Assembly: GCA_041690135.1 (NCBI GenBank) | Contig: JAWLHY010000003.1 | Coordinates: forward strand, 576,001 to 640,000 | Source of the DNA: Armatimonadota bacterium | Lineage (GTDB): Bacteria > Armatimonadota > SYMT01 | DNA: 64,000 nucleotides | Direction: 5' to 3' | Shown: in pieces, positions 17,409 to 24,700 of the stretch | Layout of the letters: every line of letters starts with the position of its first letter | How positions within the stretch are numbered: the stretch's first letter is position 1 | Notes under the pieces: generated by a model | The model's input: only the letters and a program-made list of their open reading frames with translations | Database searches by the model: none | Told to the model about the DNA's origin: nothing | Made by a program: the position numbers and the translations under genes

Positions 17409-17759
17409 CTATTCATCCTCTCCCCGCACGAGCGGTCCGCGCCAGGCCCGGATCCCTCCGGCCAGGTTGCGAACGTTCCTGAATCCTCGCTGGGCCAGCA
17501 CCCGGCTGGCCTGGGCACTTTTCAGCCCCACATTTCAATAGACCACGACCGGCTCGTCAGGATTCAGGTCCGCGGACACCGCTTCGAGGGTGCCGGACGG
17601 CACGTGTCGCGCGCCCGGCAGATGCCCGGAGGTGAACTGCTCCGTGGCGCGAATGTCCAGCAGAAGCAGCGGCCGAACGGACGCCATTTCCGCCTCCAGC
17701 GCGGCGGCCGAAACTTCCGGAACCGATGGAGAAACGAGAGCGAGTAGACGAGACAGCAT
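17409..17759 (-). CDS. Rhodanese-domain protein, predicted selenoprotein (U75 at the catalytic Cys position), 116 aa
   Basis: LLDIR..F..GHLPGA...PVVVY-TGA(17537-17535)-NVGLKSAQASRVLAQRGFRNVRNLAGGIRAW. Read-through completes the domain and stops 2 nt before the next start. Confidence 0.85.
17493..17511 (-). promoter_or_regulatory. Candidate bacterial SECIS hairpin (rhodanese)
   Basis: GGCCAGC-CGGGU-GCUGGCC; loop begins 30 nt after the UGA, G at loop position 2. Confidence 0.55.
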
Positions 17760-18776: not shown

Positions 18777-18823
18777 AGACGATTCCTTGGGCGAATGGGC
18801 GCCGCCCCGGCACTGACGGTATC

Positions 18824-19258
18824 ATGGGTGCAATGCGTCCGTTCCTAAGCCACGCGGTGCGACTGGTCTTCTTACCGGTCGTGGTCCTTCTCCTGGGTTT
18901 CGCGCCCGGACCGTGGTATTGCGCCGATGGTTCTCCGTGCGCGGCGACCGCCGCCGCCTGCTGCTGCGGCTGTGCGGAAGCCGGGGGGACGGAGATCCAC
19001 GTCTGCGAGGACGCCGCCCCCGGCGAGGCGCTTTCCCCGGAAACCTGCGGCTGCTACCGGCTGGCGGTGGCGCCCGAATGCGTACCCGCGGGGGATCGCG
19101 AGCGACCCGACGTGGAGCCGGGCTTGCCGGCCCCGGTTGCGGTGATCGTCCCGCCGTTGCTGGTCGCCTCCCCGCGCGCTACTCCCGCCTCGGCGCACAG
19201 TCCACCTACCCATCTCATCTCCTCCGGGGACCCTCGCGGTCCGCCGCCCATCGGATAG
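18824..19258 (+). CDS. Cys-rich exported leader protein with C-terminal RGPP (DUF2946/arrest-peptide-like)
   Basis: N-terminal hydrophobic segment, WYCADGSPC...CCCGC...CGC, Pro-rich tail ending PRGPPPIG. Confidence 0.7.
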   Translation: MGAMRPFLSHAVRLVFLPVVVLLLGFAPGPWYCADGSPCAATAAACCCGCAEAGGTEIHVCEDAAPGEALSPETCGCYRLAVAPECVPAGDRERPDVEPGLPAPVAVIVPPLLVASPRATPASAHSPPTHLISSGDPRGPPPIG

Positions 19259-19333
19259 AGACCTGCAGTCCGTACCCACGCGACCCGGGTGGTACCGCGT
19301 GAGCAGTGATTCCTATCCATTGGAGATGATCTT

Positions 19334-20254
19334 TTGAGAGCCTATGCAGTTCTGCCGGCCTTGTGGCTGGTTGTAGTATCTGTCGCGGCGCCGGGGCCCG
19401 TGCGCGCCGCAACCCTACTAACCGCACCCCGGATGGCCGTTTGCGCCGTCTGTCGTGAGGGCGAGGAGCCGGTGCTGGCAACGGCGGTCCACCAGGGCCG
19501 CGAGTTCACCTTCTGCAGCGAGGAGTGCAAGAAGACCTTCCTCGCCAACCCGGCCGAGTTCTTGACCCATTCCCCAGCCGAACCGAAGCCTGCAGCCCCT
19601 AACCTTCAACCTTCAACTTCCAACCTTCAACCTGCCAACCCTGATCCCGTTATGCCAAACCGCAGAAGTCCTGGAGGCTCTGCGGCTCCCAGCTGACCGA
19701 GTTGACCCGGTGAGGGAACCTCCGTGCGAGGTTCAGGAGATCTACTGGCAACGCGTTTCAACCTGGGTATCCGGTACATTCCGGACGGAGTGATCGATCG
19801 GGCCAAATGGCGGAACACCCTGATGTACCGCCTGAGCCAGGACCTGCAAGCGGGTGTCGAATACAACCCGCTGGCGGATGATGTCGGGCTACTGGTCAAC
19901 TGGCGCGCCCTCCGCGAGACGGAGAATCGTCCGGCGCTTTCATTCGGCACTTCGTCGGACCGGATCGGCACCCCCTACGGGCGGGCTTACTTCGCCACGC
20001 TTTCGAAGGACCTGGAGCCGCGCATCGGGCTGCCCGTCAGCGTGTACGGGGGCGTGCTCTGGGGCTCGTTCGAGGATGAGTTCGTCTTCCCGTTCGGGGC
20101 GAACTTCCGGCTGGGCAACCAGTGGACGTTCACCCCACAGTACGACGGACACGCCTCCCACGGGCTGCTCACCTATTCGTGGGATCGTTACAGCGTCAGC
20201 GGCCTGCTGATCCGCTGGCGCTACCCGGGCGTGGCGTTTAATATCGGCTTCTGA
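19334..20254 (+). CDS. Secreted YHS-domain/beta-barrel fusion, predicted selenoprotein with UxxU (U121, U124), 306 aa
   Basis: Signal peptide and YHS (CAVC...FTFCSEECKKTF). TGA at 19694 and 19703 are in frame with a barrel-like ORF that ends in Phe and has no signal peptide of its own. Confidence 0.7.
19716..19734 (+). promoter_or_regulatory. Candidate SECIS hairpin (YHS-UxxU gene)
   Basis: GAACCUC-CGUGC-GAGGUUC; loop begins 26 and 17 nt after the two UGAs. Confidence 0.6.
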
Positions 20255-20432: not shown

Positions 20433-21320
20433 TTAAAAGAACGTCTCGAACGCAAACCGCAGCTCGTAGGGGTAGTCGCTGTGGTCCTGGGCGCCGCTGC
20501 GGGCGACCGGGACGAACACCCCGAACCGGAGCTGGTGATTGCCCTGGATGAACATCTGCGTGACGTGGAACCCGAACAGCCGGTGCCCGTTGTTCGCGTC
20601 GCGCCCGCTGCCCAGCGGGTCGTCCGCGTGGAACTCCCCGTGGATGCCGAAGGCGGTGTTCAGTCCCAGATCGGATGCCTCCACCTGCGGCTTGAACCAC
20701 CGCCCGTAAGCCGCGTCGAACATCAACATATCGCCCATGCGGAAGCCGCCCCCCACGTCGCGGTTCCAGACCACGCTGGCCCAGGTGGTGTCGTCCAGCC
20801 GCTCCAGGTCCCAGGCATACCCCAGCATGATCCCGGGATTGCCCGTCCCGGTCTGCGAGTGCGGGTCGAGGCGCTCCCCGGCGAGGCGGTGGCCGTCGTC
20901 GCCGGTGGGAAGCTTGATCCCATAGAAGATCGACTGCTGCTGATTGACGCCGATCTCCTGCCGCGCGGCGATCCGAGTCTTGGCGCGCAGGCTGAGGTCA
21001 CCCACCCCGGAAACCGTGGTGGAGCGCACCCCGCCTCCCGCCCGCCGCTCGTGGAGCGCGTTGTAGTAGGGGATCATCAGGCGGACGTTCAGCTTCGGAC
21101 TGAAGCCGTAGTCCACCATATACTCCTGCTCGAACATCCGCATCCGCTCGCCGCCCCGGCGGACAGTACCCGCGTCGAAGTATTTGAACTTCACTTCCGG
21201 GTGAATGACGCCAAACCCGAAGGTGATCGGCGTCTCCCCCCAGAGCGGCTCATGCGCCCGGGCCGGGGTAGCCCCAAGCAGCAGCGCCGCCAGGAGGCCG
21301 ATGCGTAGCATGCAATTCAT
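20433..21320 (-). CDS. Putative outer-membrane beta-barrel transporter
   Basis: Signal peptide with mature N-terminal His (A-HEP), SGVGDLSLR, GIKLPTG, QTGTG, C-terminal Phe. Confidence 0.75.
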   Translation of the reverse strand: MNCMLRIGLLAALLLGATPARAHEPLWGETPITFGFGVIHPEVKFKYFDAGTVRRGGERMRMFEQEYMVDYGFSPKLNVRLMIPYYNALHERRAGGGVRSTTVSGVGDLSLRAKTRIAARQEIGVNQQQSIFYGIKLPTGDDGHRLAGERLDPHSQTGTGNPGIMLGYAWDLERLDDTTWASVVWNRDVGGGFRMGDMLMFDAAYGRWFKPQVEASDLGLNTAFGIHGEFHADDPLGSGRDANNGHRLFGFHVTQMFIQGNHQLRFGVFVPVARSGAQDHSDYPYELRFAFETFF

Positions 21321-21332
21321 CGGATCGCCTCC

Positions 21333-21884
21333 TTATCGCTTCGGCCTCTTGTCTTCGGCGCCGTAGATCGCGGTGACCGCCAGGGAGCCCTTGCTGTCCG
21401 GACCCTGCGGATCGGGTTTCCAGAGCCCTTCCACCTCGACCTGGTCACCTACATGCCGGTTCAGCTGCACAGCAGTGTCCGGGTCCTCTTTCGCAGCCAC
21501 CACAGAGAGCGAGGTGGGGGATTTCATGCCGTCCAATTCGAGGAGCAATGTGTCTCCCCGTTTTACGACGGTGCCGGAGACGACCAACTCCACCTGGTCC
21601 TCGATCGGCTTGTAGCCGGCCTCCCGGATCTTCTCGAGCATCTTCGGGATCTCGGGCCAGGCACCGGGCTTCACCTTTACCTCCATGTGCGGAGGTCGAA
21701 GAATCAACTTGGATTGAGCAACGCCATCCAGGCGCTGCAGCCCCTTACGGAGCGTAATGCCTCAGGTCGCTCACGTGGCCCCTTTGATACCCAGCTTGAC
21801 GAGCTTGACATCGGCCAGGCCCGGAGAGGCGAGCAAGGAAGTAAGGGCGACGGAAGCCCCGAAGAAGAGAACCTTTCTAAACAT
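21333..21884 (-). CDS. Secreted HMA (MerP/CopZ-like) protein with C-terminal OB-like domain, predicted selenoprotein with UxxU (U38, U41), 183 aa
   Basis: Signal peptide, VKLGIKGAT-TGA(21773)-AT-TGA(21764)-GITLRKGLQRLDGV...IREAGY. This matches the HMA pattern GMTCxxC...L..L.GV...I..AGY. Confidence 0.85.
21720..21753 (-). promoter_or_regulatory. Two tandem candidate SECIS hairpins (HMA-UxxU gene)
   Basis: GCUCC-GUAA-GGGGC (loop 22 nt after UGA1) and AGCGCC-UGGAU-GGCGUU (loop 31 nt after UGA2). Confidence 0.5.
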
Positions 21885-22189: not shown

Positions 22190-22678
22190 CTACGCAGTGG
22201 GCGGGGCTCGTGATGGCCCCAAAGAGAGGAGCGGAGGCGGGCTATGCCCCAGCGGATCAGCGGGGCGGGTACCGAACGTCGCCGTCAGCAGAGGGGGCGA
22301 CAGGTGAGCCGGCGGCAACAAACCGTCGGGAGCCGACTCGGGGTGTGAGGTCGTGGAGGTTCGCAGCGAGGGCGCGGCCGGCCGGGAAGAGACGATGAAC
22401 CGGCAGTGATCGCCGGTAGAAATCTGGGCTCCCGGACCCGGAGGCGCAGCCGCCAGCCCGGGATACCGGCCATGTCCGCAGCGAAGTTGCACCGGTGAGA
22501 CGCAGCAGGAAGCAGCTTCTACCCCGGCGGTACGGTCGTCCTTCGCGCAGTGGTACCCCCGGCTGTCGGCCACGCAGGGAGTGCCGTCCGGGCAGGACCA
22601 GTACGCGGCAAAGGGTGCGACCGGTCCCAGGACCAGCGTCAGGATCAGCAGTATCGCCAGGAGCAGCCGTCTCATCAT
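22190..22678 (-). CDS. Cys-rich exported leader protein with C-terminal RAPP (DUF2946/arrest-peptide-like)
   Basis: Signal peptide, WSCPDGTPC...HC...SCC...C..HC, ends PSRAPPTA. Confidence 0.75.
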   Translation of the reverse strand: MMRRLLLAILLILTLVLGPVAPFAAYWSCPDGTPCVADSRGYHCAKDDRTAGVEAASCCVSPVQLRCGHGRYPGLAAAPPGPGAQISTGDHCRFIVSSRPAAPSLRTSTTSHPESAPDGLLPPAHLSPPLLTATFGTRPADPLGHSPPPLLSLGPSRAPPTA

Positions 22679-22883
22679 GGGTAAGCGAGACCGGAAAGGA
22701 TCCGTCTCTGCTTAACCATACGGCACCCTCGGTCCCGGCGTCATCGCGAACGTGACAGTCGCGGGCACCTCTTTCCGTCCTAACTCCGCTGAAGGCCTCG
22801 AGCGAGTTCGGACGATCCGCATCCTGGGAAATACGACTTTGAAGCGACTCGAACTGAGCTGCGGGAGTGGACTGGAGGTAGGG

Positions 22884-23585
22884 ATGGAACGGGCGCAATT
22901 CTGGAAGGGGCTCGCGATCGGGATCGCGGCCACCCTGCTGGCGGCCGTTCTGATCATGCTAGTTTCGCTAACGGTGATGAGCGCGAACCAGGATGCAGGT
23001 GGTATCCCTCCGATGAACGGCGCCCGGCATGAGGATCCTCCCACGCGCCGCGAGACGAATGGCGGGATGATGGACCCGGACGGCATGATGGGCGGCGGCA
23101 GGATGATGGACGGCATGCCGCCCTGGATGATGAGCCGGCCGGATACCGGCGCGGCGGGTGGCGGCCCGGAGATGATGCGGGACATGCGGACCATCCGCCA
23201 ACTTCTGACCCAGCATGAGAAGATCGAGCGTTACCTGTGGGAGATCCCCGGCGGGGTCCGCGCCGTGACGACCAGCGAAGATCCGCAGGTGGCCCAGGCG
23301 ATCCGCACGCATGTCCGCCAGATGAAGGAGCGGCTCGAGCAGGGGCAGCCGATCCGGATGATGGACCCCCTCTTCCGCGAGCTCTTCCGGCATCACGAGA
23401 AGATCAACATACAGGTCGAAGAGGTGCCGGGCGGCGTACGCGTGACGGAAACCTCGCAGGACCCACAGGTGACGGCGCTTATCCGCCAGCATGCAAACCG
23501 GGCCGTCTCCGAGTTCGTGGAGCGGGGCATGCCGCGGGCCATGGAGCCGACGCCGCTGCCGCCTGGCTATGAGACCGGCCGGTGA
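22884..23585 (+). CDS. Membrane-anchored Met-rich hypothetical protein
   Basis: One TM segment, GGMMDPDGMMGGGRMMDGM, two internal repeats (HEKI....IPGGVR..TSEDP.V...IR.H). Confidence 0.75.
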   Translation: MERAQFWKGLAIGIAATLLAAVLIMLVSLTVMSANQDAGGIPPMNGARHEDPPTRRETNGGMMDPDGMMGGGRMMDGMPPWMMSRPDTGAAGGGPEMMRDMRTIRQLLTQHEKIERYLWEIPGGVRAVTTSEDPQVAQAIRTHVRQMKERLEQGQPIRMMDPLFRELFRHHEKINIQVEEVPGGVRVTETSQDPQVTALIRQHANRAVSEFVERGMPRAMEPTPLPPGYETGR

Positions 23586-23617: not shown

Positions 23618-24700
23618 TCAGAACTGCGAGAAGAGCAGTCCGCCCGCCAGCCCCAACACCAGGACGAACAGGCCCAGGCAGGCCGCCGCGCGATAGGAGC
23701 CCAGCACCTTCCCCAGCATCCAGAGGGAGGGGAAGCTGACCGAGGGCAGCACCACCAGCAGCGCCACGGCCGGGCCTTCGCCCATTCCGGCCCGGGTAAA
23801 CTCCGAGACCCAGAGGACTTCCGTGAAGGTCGGGACCATCAGCAGGGTCCCGAGCAGGGAGGCCGCCGCGGTGGGCAGCAGCCCGTTGCCGAAGCTCCGC
23901 GCCACCGCTTCCACCGGCAGCGCGGTCTTGAGCAGCCCGATCAGGAGAAAGCCGAGCAGCAGCATCGGCAGGACCATCCGGGCGATGGCGGCGGTCTGGG
24001 CCAGCCAGCGAGCGAGCATCTCGCCGACGGAGGTATCCGGCGGCGGACCTACCGGACAGACTTCCTCTTCCTGCTTGCCCGGTATCAACCGGCTCGCCAG
24101 GTACGTGGCGCCCAGGGCAGCGGCCACTCCCAGAACCAGCCGGGCCACGGCCAGCTTTACCGGCAGCAACTCGAAGGCGAGGATGAGGGTGACGGTGTTC
24201 AGCGCCGGCGCGGTGACGAAGTAAGCCATGGCCGCACCCCGTCCGGCGCCGGAGGCCCGCAGCCCCGCGGTAGCTCCCACCGCGCAGCAGGAGCAGAACA
24301 TACTCGGGAGCCCCATGATTAGGCCCGCAAACTGCTGCCGGAACCCGTTTCCGCCCAGATGTCGCCGGATCAACTCCGGCAGAAAGGCCTGGACCGCGCC
24401 GCCGATGAAGAGGCCGAGCAGGGTCGCCGACCAGACCGCATTCACATAATCGACGGTGTAGAGGAACGGCAAGGCCCACTGCGGTGCGTGCTGAAGATCC
24501 AGCGAGAGCGGAAACTTCGTGCCCAGGGGAGTGACGTTGACGATCCCCAGCTTGTTCAGCAGTGAGAGGATGCGGTACTGGAACACCAGCCCGAACAACA
24601 CCGCGAAGACGCCGAACACGACCCCATTGCGCTGGCGACGACTGAGAGGGGTGGGCCGGACGCTCTCCGGCTCTGGCATGGGGGCTGCAAGCGTGGACAT
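23618..24700 (-). CDS. Predicted permease (DUF318/ArsP_1 family)
   Basis: Multi-TM; PSMFCSCC, YFVTAPALN, LPSVSFPSL. Confidence 0.8.
   Translation of the reverse strand: MSTLAAPMPEPESVRPTPLSRRQRNGVVFGVFAVLFGLVFQYRILSLLNKLGIVNVTPLGTKFPLSLDLQHAPQWALPFLYTVDYVNAVWSATLLGLFIGGAVQAFLPELIRRHLGGNGFRQQFAGLIMGLPSMFCSCCAVGATAGLRASGAGRGAAMAYFVTAPALNTVTLILAFELLPVKLAVARLVLGVAAALGATYLASRLIPGKQEEEVCPVGPPPDTSVGEMLARWLAQTAAIARMVLPMLLLGFLLIGLLKTALPVEAVARSFGNGLLPTAAASLLGTLLMVPTFTEVLWVSEFTRAGMGEGPAVALLVVLPSVSFPSLWMLGKVLGSYRAAACLGLFVLVLGLAGGLLFSQF

Follow-up and report, generated by a model that had tools for sequence, protein, structure and literature searches.

We have analysed a stretch of 64,000 nucleotides from an Armatimonadota genome (contig JAWLHY010000003.1, positions 576,001 to 640,000; hereafter the window, with coordinates counted from its first letter), in which positions 19334-20254 of the plus strand hold 306 codons in one frame, closed by a TGA stop at 20252-20254. 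Gene callers report two open reading frames (ORFs) here, 19334-19696 (TTG start, 120 amino acids) and 19724-20254 (GTG start, 176 amino acids). A preliminary description of this DNA had pointed out that the two share a frame and are split only by TGA-CCG-AGT-TGA and six sense codons, and re-reading of the sequence confirms it: the first TGA lies at 19694-19696, the second at 19703-19705, and the codons that follow are CCC GGT GAG GGA ACC TCC. When TGA is translated as selenocysteine (Sec, U), the frame reads ...AAPS-U-P-S-U-PGEGTSVRGSG..., with Sec at U121 and U124. On the evidence of this sequence and its relatives, 19334-20254 is a single gene whose two internal TGAs are selenocysteine codons, not stops, and which gene callers have split because of them. 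In a profile search of the genome, the match spans 19676-20251 with two TGAs inside. Metagenome contigs cover the gene in pieces, none of them spanning the whole stretch, and the one that covers 19694-19740 (X4, record 18) shows zero differences from the window.

The predicted product is modular. A Shine-Dalgarno-like GGAG (19322-19325), recognised by reading the sequence, lies 8 nucleotides (nt) 5' of the TTG start, and residues 1-25 (19334-19408) form a predicted signal peptide, with Arg2, a hydrophobic core and V-R-A ahead of the likely cleavage site. Residues 36-79 (19439-19570) make up a YHS/TRASH-type domain carrying Cys37, Cys40, Cys61 and Cys65, which belongs to the YHS family by its match to Pfam PF04945 (33.4 bits against a gathering cut-off of 30.3, E 4.6e-8, best stretch residues 54-79). 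It is followed by a Pro-rich low-complexity linker (residues 80-117, 19571-19684), differing in length and content among relatives, and by the conserved motif A-P-S-U-P-S-U-P-G-E-G (residues 118-128, 19685-19717; alignments A2 and A3). The first Sec codon (UGA, U121) is TGA or TGT/TGC in relatives; the second (UGA, U124) is TGA in relatives and Cys in distant homologues. The remainder, up to the C-terminal ...NIGF, is a predicted outer-membrane barrel, which, as noted in the preliminary description, ends in Phe and has no signal peptide or hydrophobic N-terminus of its own.

Homologues of the barrel part are numerous (1071 at E <= 0.001), and the 120 of them that were listed are all called at 104-187 amino acids, with naming that never goes beyond 'hypothetical protein'. 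We fetched 27 loci from public genomes and translated them in frame upstream, a check that the preliminary description had proposed; one ends at a contig edge, which leaves 26 readable. All 26 carry [U/C]-P-x-U-P-G-E-G, with V/A-P-S/T/A before it and an in-frame leader further up. Eighteen further loci from the window's own phylum read U-x-x-U-P-G-E-G without exception, 13 of them as U-T-G-U. Altogether, [U/C]-x-x-U-PGEG stands upstream of the barrel in 44 of 44 readable related loci from at least five labelled phyla, the carriers being labelled Armatimonadota, Planctomycetota, Verrucomicrobiota, Acidobacteriota-type and Binatia. The claim of one secreted protein with UxxU just N-terminal of the barrel is thus supported by all of these loci and by the in-frame signal peptide upstream.

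At the codon level, with the window included, site 1 is TGA in 20 of 27 sequences and TGT or TGC in the other seven (L015, L016, L017, L019, L022, L023 and L027), most of which come from records titled Verrucomicrobiota or Verrucomicrobiales; site 2 is TGA in 27 of 27. Both sites are TGA in all 18 further loci. The first Sec/Cys column shows no variation in alignments A2 and A3, and conservation in the second such column and in P-G-E-G is 90% or more. The third positions of the P-G-E-G codons vary among the aligned loci, which points to selection on the protein. The valine codon that serves as the called start is GTG in 12 of 25 aligned loci, GTC in 11, and GTA and ATC in one each.

An upstream in-frame signal peptide passes a crude hydrophobicity script in the window and in 35 of the 45 loci in all; most of the other ten show, in a read-through view and not locus by locus, an in-frame Met and, directly after it, a hydrophobic segment that lacks Lys and Arg. 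The N-terminal extension comes in several forms: a leader alone, a YHS domain (window, L013, L048, L056), or a TlpA-like domain and a His-rich stretch fused in frame (L018, L026, L028). In most members of the family, just 23-41 residues separate the start codon from the motif. Locus L018 derives from a genome flagged as unpublished (G203); as it supplies only one of the 26 motif loci, one of the three TlpA fusions and one of the four selA checks described below, no conclusion hangs on it. Over the 80-base Sec site, L009 equals L049, whose contig is of equal length, and L042 equals L045, and 41 of the 45 sites are distinct. L042 (G137) and L045 (G164) are placed in different genera and have, besides identical Sec sites, identical adjoining YHS-TlpA proteins, which suggests either recent transfer or binning overlap; in G164, the family is present twice on the contig.

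Towards the edges of the superfamily, the profile finds 318 representatives at E <= 0.001 in a library clustered at 50% identity, 16 of which were fetched for reading of the motif. Five of the 16 (P0185, P0192, P0229, P0195 and P0132) have Cys at both sites, and together with the Cys at site 1 in the seven loci above they provide the Cys homology that the preliminary description had left unverified. P0195 combines three YHS stretches, CxxC and the barrel in one protein, and the Cys form P0185 has no match in Pfam or NCBIfam. In P0167, P0169, P0172, P0199, P0205, P0213 and P0272 the profile match starts only at position 31-34, and these seven are without the motif or a clear signal peptide. The genome of the window itself carries a distant barrel paralogue that lacks the Sec/Cys motif (G000:C1:191586-192023, L037 1423-1983; E 2.7e-12), with a TlpA-like stretch about 430 bp downstream of it (C1:192451-192819); in view of this proximity, the link between barrel and thioredoxin may be older than the selenocysteine motif.

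Downstream of the Sec codons lies a hairpin of the selenocysteine insertion sequence (SECIS) type (19716-19734). As described earlier, its 7-bp stem is perfect Watson-Crick (arms 19716-19722 and 19728-19734) and the called GTG start (19724-19726) falls inside its loop (CGUGC, in DNA CGTGC, 19723-19727). The hairpin has a folding energy of -8.7 kcal/mol and is spaced 17 nt from the second UGA and 26 nt from the first. Bacterial SECIS elements have been delimited by a loop of 3-9 nt, a stem of 4-16 bp, a G in the first two loop positions, a distance of 16-37 nt from the UGA and a minimum free energy of at most -7.5 kcal/mol (PMC13188914), and the window hairpin satisfies all of these constraints for both UGAs. 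Among the distinct sites of the family, 30 of 41 pass a SECIS script, as against 80 of 1840 random windows (4.3%) from the same loci. In the register of the window, 77.7% of the cells in the hairpin columns pair, compared with at most 47% when the partner column is slid, and none of 500 shuffles reaches the observed value.

The genome also encodes the Sec machinery: a tRNA-Sec (67.2 bits; called tRNA-SeC, anticodon tca, by ARAGORN), selA (566.6 bits), selB (383.6 bits) and selD (369.6 bits), all over their cut-offs. Three of these, selA, selD and tRNA-Sec, are clustered at G000:C1:1149453-1152359, and selB is on another contig. An in-frame TGA in selD makes this gene a selenoprotein gene itself. 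In a phylum sample of 201 genomes, selA accompanies the family in 28 of its 29 carriers and is also present in 78 of the 172 genomes without it, counts that are given without a statistical test since related genomes are not independent; the lone carrier without selA is a genome 86% complete. The 31 family matches in this sample contain two TGAs in 28 cases, one in one case and none in two, and the two TGA-free matches do not cover the motif. In other phyla, all four carrier genomes checked have selA.

Several observations weigh against a selenoprotein. Among the RNA runs on record, none contains the gene. The strict SECIS script rejects 11 of the 41 sites, some for a shortfall of 0.2-1 kcal/mol and others as the minimum-energy fold picks another hairpin. 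When the window hairpin is taken alone, its 76-nt stretch is no more stable than shuffled sequence (z +0.65; 150 of 200 shuffles do as well), and RNAalifold finds no consensus structure in 25 aligned sites. We attribute the latter to the existence of two hairpin registers, for which reason pairs were counted for the named structure and each site was tested separately; it is the recurrence in relatives, and not the window hairpin by itself, that takes the arrangement beyond chance. Among the 16 fetched representatives, P0159 has Cys at site 1 and Trp at site 2, and three (P0124, P0130 and P0135) have lost both Cys/Sec, so that some barrels of the superfamily evidently do without the motif. With these points taken into account, we consider it very probable that 19334-20254 is one selenoprotein gene, its UGAs decoded by means of the hairpin, and that it specifies an exported protein made of a YHS domain, a linker, the S-U-P-x-U-P-G-E-G motif and a 12-stranded barrel.

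Structure prediction, also proposed in the preliminary description, identifies the C-terminal part as a 12-stranded outer-membrane beta-barrel that ends in Phe (19757-20251), preceded by a segment bearing both Sec (model residues 11-31, 19694-19756) that is placed at or in the barrel with moderate model confidence. For the last 196 residues, AlphaFold gives a model with a predicted local distance difference test (pLDDT) score of 84.2 and a predicted template modelling (pTM) score of 0.81, and values of 89.1 and 0.84 when the motif is present in every row of the alignment. With this motif-carrying alignment, the pLDDT of the Sec-bearing segment goes from 52/43 to 73/71. DSSP counts 12 strands on the models, which match solved 12-stranded outer-membrane barrels (4rl8, 5o65, 4pr7, 2wjr, 1uyo) at Z 13-16; Foldseek returns the same barrel families at E 2e-4 to 6e-4. 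By VIA-align, the Z scores are 15.7-16.0 for the COG4313 channel, 15.7-15.9 for FapF, 13.6-15.7 for KdgM, 13-15 for NanC and autotransporter barrels, 14.2-14.4 for LpxR and 9.3 for OMPLA. The column of the C-terminal Phe is at least 90% conserved. Invariant in 45 sequences are, in model numbering, the first Sec/Cys, R37, R50, G64, D99, R100, G145, D161 and H166, and S97 and S98, within G-T-S-S-D-R-I-G, are at least 90% conserved.

The COG4313 channel (4rl8), FapF (5o65) and KdgM/NanC have the same fold and a similar size, with a root-mean-square deviation (rmsd) of 2.5-3.0 over 151-167 residues. Unlike the present protein, they have neither a Sec nor a Cys pair; identity is 7-16%, and their substrates (amyloid subunits, hydrophobic compounds, acidic sugars) are unrelated. 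In FapF and the COG4313 channel, an N-terminal segment occupies the pore, and our alignments to these two begin at model residues 2-13. More generally, structural alignments begin at residues 2-14 for plugged barrels, which have something in the pore, and at 30-33 for open porins. These alignment ranges, and not coordinates, hint that the Sec loop is modelled within the pore or at it. As for the identity of the barrel, ESM Atlas clusters are named 'hypothetical' or 'TonB-like barrel', except for one called BcsS, to which Pfam's YjbH family is attached (score 0.96). Since the protein itself does not match YjbH in Pfam at E <= 1, we keep this name as a lead only.

The most constant companion of the family is a secreted protein that combines YHS with a TlpA/ResA-like thioredoxin (W-C-x-P-C). 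On the same strand, it adjoins the barrel gene in 12 of the 18 further loci, and L010 and L013 have the same adjoining YHS and TlpA-like gene; some of these partners carry C-V-P-C, as in TlpA. Within 7 kilobases (kb), some loci also contain a copper-type P-type ATPase (TIGR01511, 612 bits), an RND pump with its adaptor, and a regulator of the ArsR/SmtB type. In the window, an HMA/MerP-like gene with UxxU and a permease resembling SO_0444 lie within 4.5 kb of the barrel gene. TlpA is known to maintain the cysteines that serve as copper ligands in ScoI and CoxB in their reduced state, which allows copper to bind (PMC6669012), a precedent for a periplasmic thioredoxin-fold reductase that serves a metal-ligand pair, as proposed here. 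In contrast to the TlpA-ScoI/CoxB system of CuA assembly, the target would be a Sec pair on an outer-membrane barrel rather than an inner-membrane Sco or oxidase subunit, and the reductase is fused to YHS.

From this context, and by analogy with TlpA and PcoB, we propose that the barrel bears a metal/redox site made of selenols, which the YHS-TlpA partner would service. SelA, SelB, SelD and tRNA-Sec would read the UGAs at 19694 and 19703 as selenocysteine, directed by the hairpin at 19716-19734, and the signal peptide would export the product, leaving the Cys4 YHS domain in the periplasm on a flexible Pro-rich linker. Together the two selenols would make a binding site for a soft metal, of which Cu(I) is the likeliest, and they could also close to a diselenide. 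Their site would lie either where the barrel opens to the periplasm or within the lumen, near the invariant barrel residues R37, R50, D99, R100, D161 and H166 (model numbering). The secreted YHS and TlpA-like thioredoxin, adjoining or fused, would keep the Sec pair reduced and may pass on metal, and the barrel would let the metal through the outer membrane. The family probably handles copper-like metals, and the metal-gating site, which the preliminary description had suggested and which we infer here, is now backed by gene context. Taken by itself, the mechanistic part (metal site, reductase partner and passage across the outer membrane) has in our judgement about an even chance of being right; the whole explanation, selenoprotein gene and metal/redox site together, we regard as probable.

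There are also points that speak against this mechanism. Efflux genes occur within 7 kb in only five of the 18 further loci, and in the window no TlpA-like gene adjoins the barrel gene. Clustering of neighbours within 3 kb in the 27 loci finds nothing common across phyla but the YHS and TlpA parts. The matches to MerP-like and Zn/Cd-type proteins fit Hg, Ag, Zn or Cd equally well, the evidence for function comes from gene context only, and that for the placement of the motif from a pLDDT of about 72 and the alignment ranges.

A bolder form of the proposal would make the double-Sec loop, occupying the pore, a redox-resettable valve for copper-like metals in an undescribed and widespread class of outer-membrane channels. 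The diselenide would be the closed or idle state, the diselenolate the metal-carrying one, and a dedicated periplasmic YHS-TlpA reductase would reset the valve. We grant this version a modest chance; if true, it would be the first selenium-gated, redox-controlled channel of the outer membrane.

Alternatively, the same selenoprotein might use U-x-x-U as a redox catalyst at the outer-membrane end of a TlpA-fed electron relay, reducing or isomerising a substrate located in the outer membrane or beyond it, such as a peroxide, an oxidised envelope protein, or a compound of sulfur, selenium or tellurium. That most UxxC/CxxU selenoproteins are thought to be redox enzymes (PMC13188914) favours such a role, as do the thioredoxin-fold reductase as most constant partner and the candidate rhodanese selenoprotein encoded 2 kb upstream. 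However, YHS, the His-rich stretch and the HMA/MerP-like, Cu-ATPase, RND and ArsR/SmtB neighbours indicate metals, and no substrate or catalytic partner can be named, so that catalysis as the main function appears to have a small though appreciable likelihood. Metal binding and redox catalysis are compatible, and one does not exclude the other.

The architecture, with its signal peptide, variable N-terminal domain, linker and 12-stranded barrel ending in Phe, would also fit an autotransporter-like protein, whose barrel would bring its N-terminal part, be it a YHS, TlpA-like or His-rich domain or the Sec loop only, to the cell surface, the linker threading the pore, and the barrels of EstA, NalP, AIDA-I, Hbp and BrkA, at Z 13-15, align from model residues 10-14. 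Nevertheless, most members have no passenger, given the 23-41 residues before the motif; the Pfam Autotransporter model gives no match at E <= 1; the barrel is about 165 amino acids long against 245-303 residues in the matched autotransporter barrels; and a TlpA-like reductase depends on electrons supplied in the periplasm. Z scores of 13-15 are, moreover, common to all 12-stranded barrels. We therefore do not place the protein among the type Va autotransporters, and consider surface export improbable. Equally improbable is an outer-membrane enzyme in the manner of the 12-stranded hydrolases LpxR and OMPLA, in which the barrel would employ invariant Asp, His and Ser/Thr residues and the Sec pair would be regulatory or accessory. 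The conservation of D99, D161, H166, S97 and S98 and the scores of both enzymes are in its favour, but LpxR and the protein are 14% identical, equally high scores are obtained with open porins of the same size, the loci viewed show no lipid-related neighbours, and the linkage to YHS/TlpA would be left unexplained.

Finally, two genes as annotated, a secreted YHS protein ending at TGA 19694 and a barrel protein starting from GTG 19724, can be all but set aside: the callers' split, the size of all 120 listed homologues and a GAGG 7 nt ahead of the GTG would suit them, but frame and residues are kept across both TGAs in all 44 readable loci, homologues have Cys at both TGA positions, the GTG is missing in 13 of 25 aligned loci, SECIS-type hairpins are enriched at the sites, the family co-occurs with selA, and an outer-membrane barrel would be left without a signal peptide, the barrels of the relatives likewise lacking the start and signal peptide of their own that the preliminary description had named as the outcome fatal to a fused protein.

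Among described systems, PcoB is an outer-membrane barrel whose flexible, metal-binding N-terminal region is required for copper resistance (PMC12509749). The present protein resembles PcoB/CopB, which stand among copper genes, in that an outer-membrane barrel follows a flexible N-terminal region, here only putatively metal-binding. In PcoB, that region is rich in His and Met and poorly conserved, whereas here it is a strictly conserved loop with two Sec. The protein does not belong to PcoB/CopB by any Pfam or NCBIfam family at E <= 1, and by structure reaches only Z 8.3-8.5 (PcoB 7pge; rmsd 4.7 over 155 residues).

The HMA/MerP-like selenoprotein family NF041115 likewise has two Sec in U-x-x-U standing in for a metal-binding CxxC, but its fold is the soluble ferredoxin-like HMA, and the barrel protein gives no match to it. 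Nor does the fused protein match NF041384, a YHS selenoprotein family with GxU, in NCBIfam at E <= 1; both Sec sit outside the YHS domain, 42 and 45 residues past it. Two further families, NF049945 and NF041027, consist of much larger barrels. They are the catalogued outer-membrane barrel selenoproteins, a TonB-dependent receptor of the FCYXU type and the GSU2204 MtrB/PioB type, respectively, and like the present family were predicted by comparative genomics to be selenocysteine-containing outer-membrane beta-barrels (PMC13188914); in contrast to it, they have one Sec each and are unrelated barrels, and the NCBIfam scan of the window protein matches neither.

The preliminary description had not recognised a known selenoprotein family here, and this judgement holds for Pfam, NCBIfam and the 2026 catalogue. 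Apart from YHS, neither the barrel nor the fused protein has a match in Pfam or NCBIfam (June 2026) at E <= 1. Table 1 of the 2026 selenoprotein review comprises 119 families, with U-x-x-U only in Prx-like proteins, the HMA-type NF041115 and FmdB, and the present family is absent from these 119, although the supplements could list more (PMC13188914). Full-text literature searches, including passages of PMC9312934, found no description of it. As far as Pfam, NCBIfam and the 2026 catalogue show, this is an undescribed and widespread selenoprotein family.

The family adds to the selenoproteins one that is systematically mis-annotated, its members being called as truncated hypothetical proteins, and a single profile spanning the motif could let annotation pipelines recover it. 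It puts two predicted selenocysteines on an outer-membrane barrel genetically linked to a YHS-thioredoxin partner, and thereby offers a testable case for the handling of soft metals at the outer membrane, a poorly understood step. The locus itself would comprise three selenoprotein genes within 4.5 kb.

One of the other two candidates lies 1.1 kb from the barrel gene, at 21333-21884 on the minus strand. It would encode a secreted HMA/MerP-like protein with G-A-T-U-A-T-U-G, the TGAs being at 21771-21773 and 21762-21764, and a C-terminal part of about 90 additional residues belonging to no family. Its matches are all below threshold (NF041115, 36.8 bits against a cut-off of 95; MerP, 39 bits; Pfam HMA, 24.6 bits). 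U-A-T-U is also kept in L010, and the RNA downstream folds better than shuffles (z -2.05). The other candidate, at 17409-17759 on the minus strand, is a rhodanese-domain gene split by a TGA (17535-17537) at the active-site position, ...V-V-V-Y-U-N-V-G-L-K-S..., and from its sequence looks like a member of the known UxxG rhodanese selenoproteins. Elsewhere in the genome, TlpA-like matches with one in-frame TGA each (C5:203604, C6:280961 and C7:221236) may be thioredoxin-fold selenoproteins.

Further genes of the neighbourhood complete the picture of the locus. The product of 20433-21320 (minus strand; 295 amino acids) has a signal peptide, ends in ...F-E-T-F-F and matches no Pfam or NCBIfam family; judging by these features, it is probably a further outer-membrane barrel. 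In L010 too, it is found beside the HMA-like gene. Two small Cys-rich proteins with an N-terminal hydrophobic segment and W-Y/S-C-x-D-G-x-P-C, encoded at 18788-19258 (plus strand) and 22190-22678 (minus strand), match no family, and the first also contains C-C-C-G-C. In L009 and L010, relatives of these proteins are encoded immediately before the barrel gene, and Cys/His-rich analogues lie near it in L017, L019 and L023. At 23618-24700 (minus strand) there is an ArsP-type permease, whose resemblance to the SO_0444-like Cu/Zn efflux family is far under the cut-off (72 against 300 bits), and at 22752-23585 (plus strand) a gene for a secreted protein with a Met-rich stretch.

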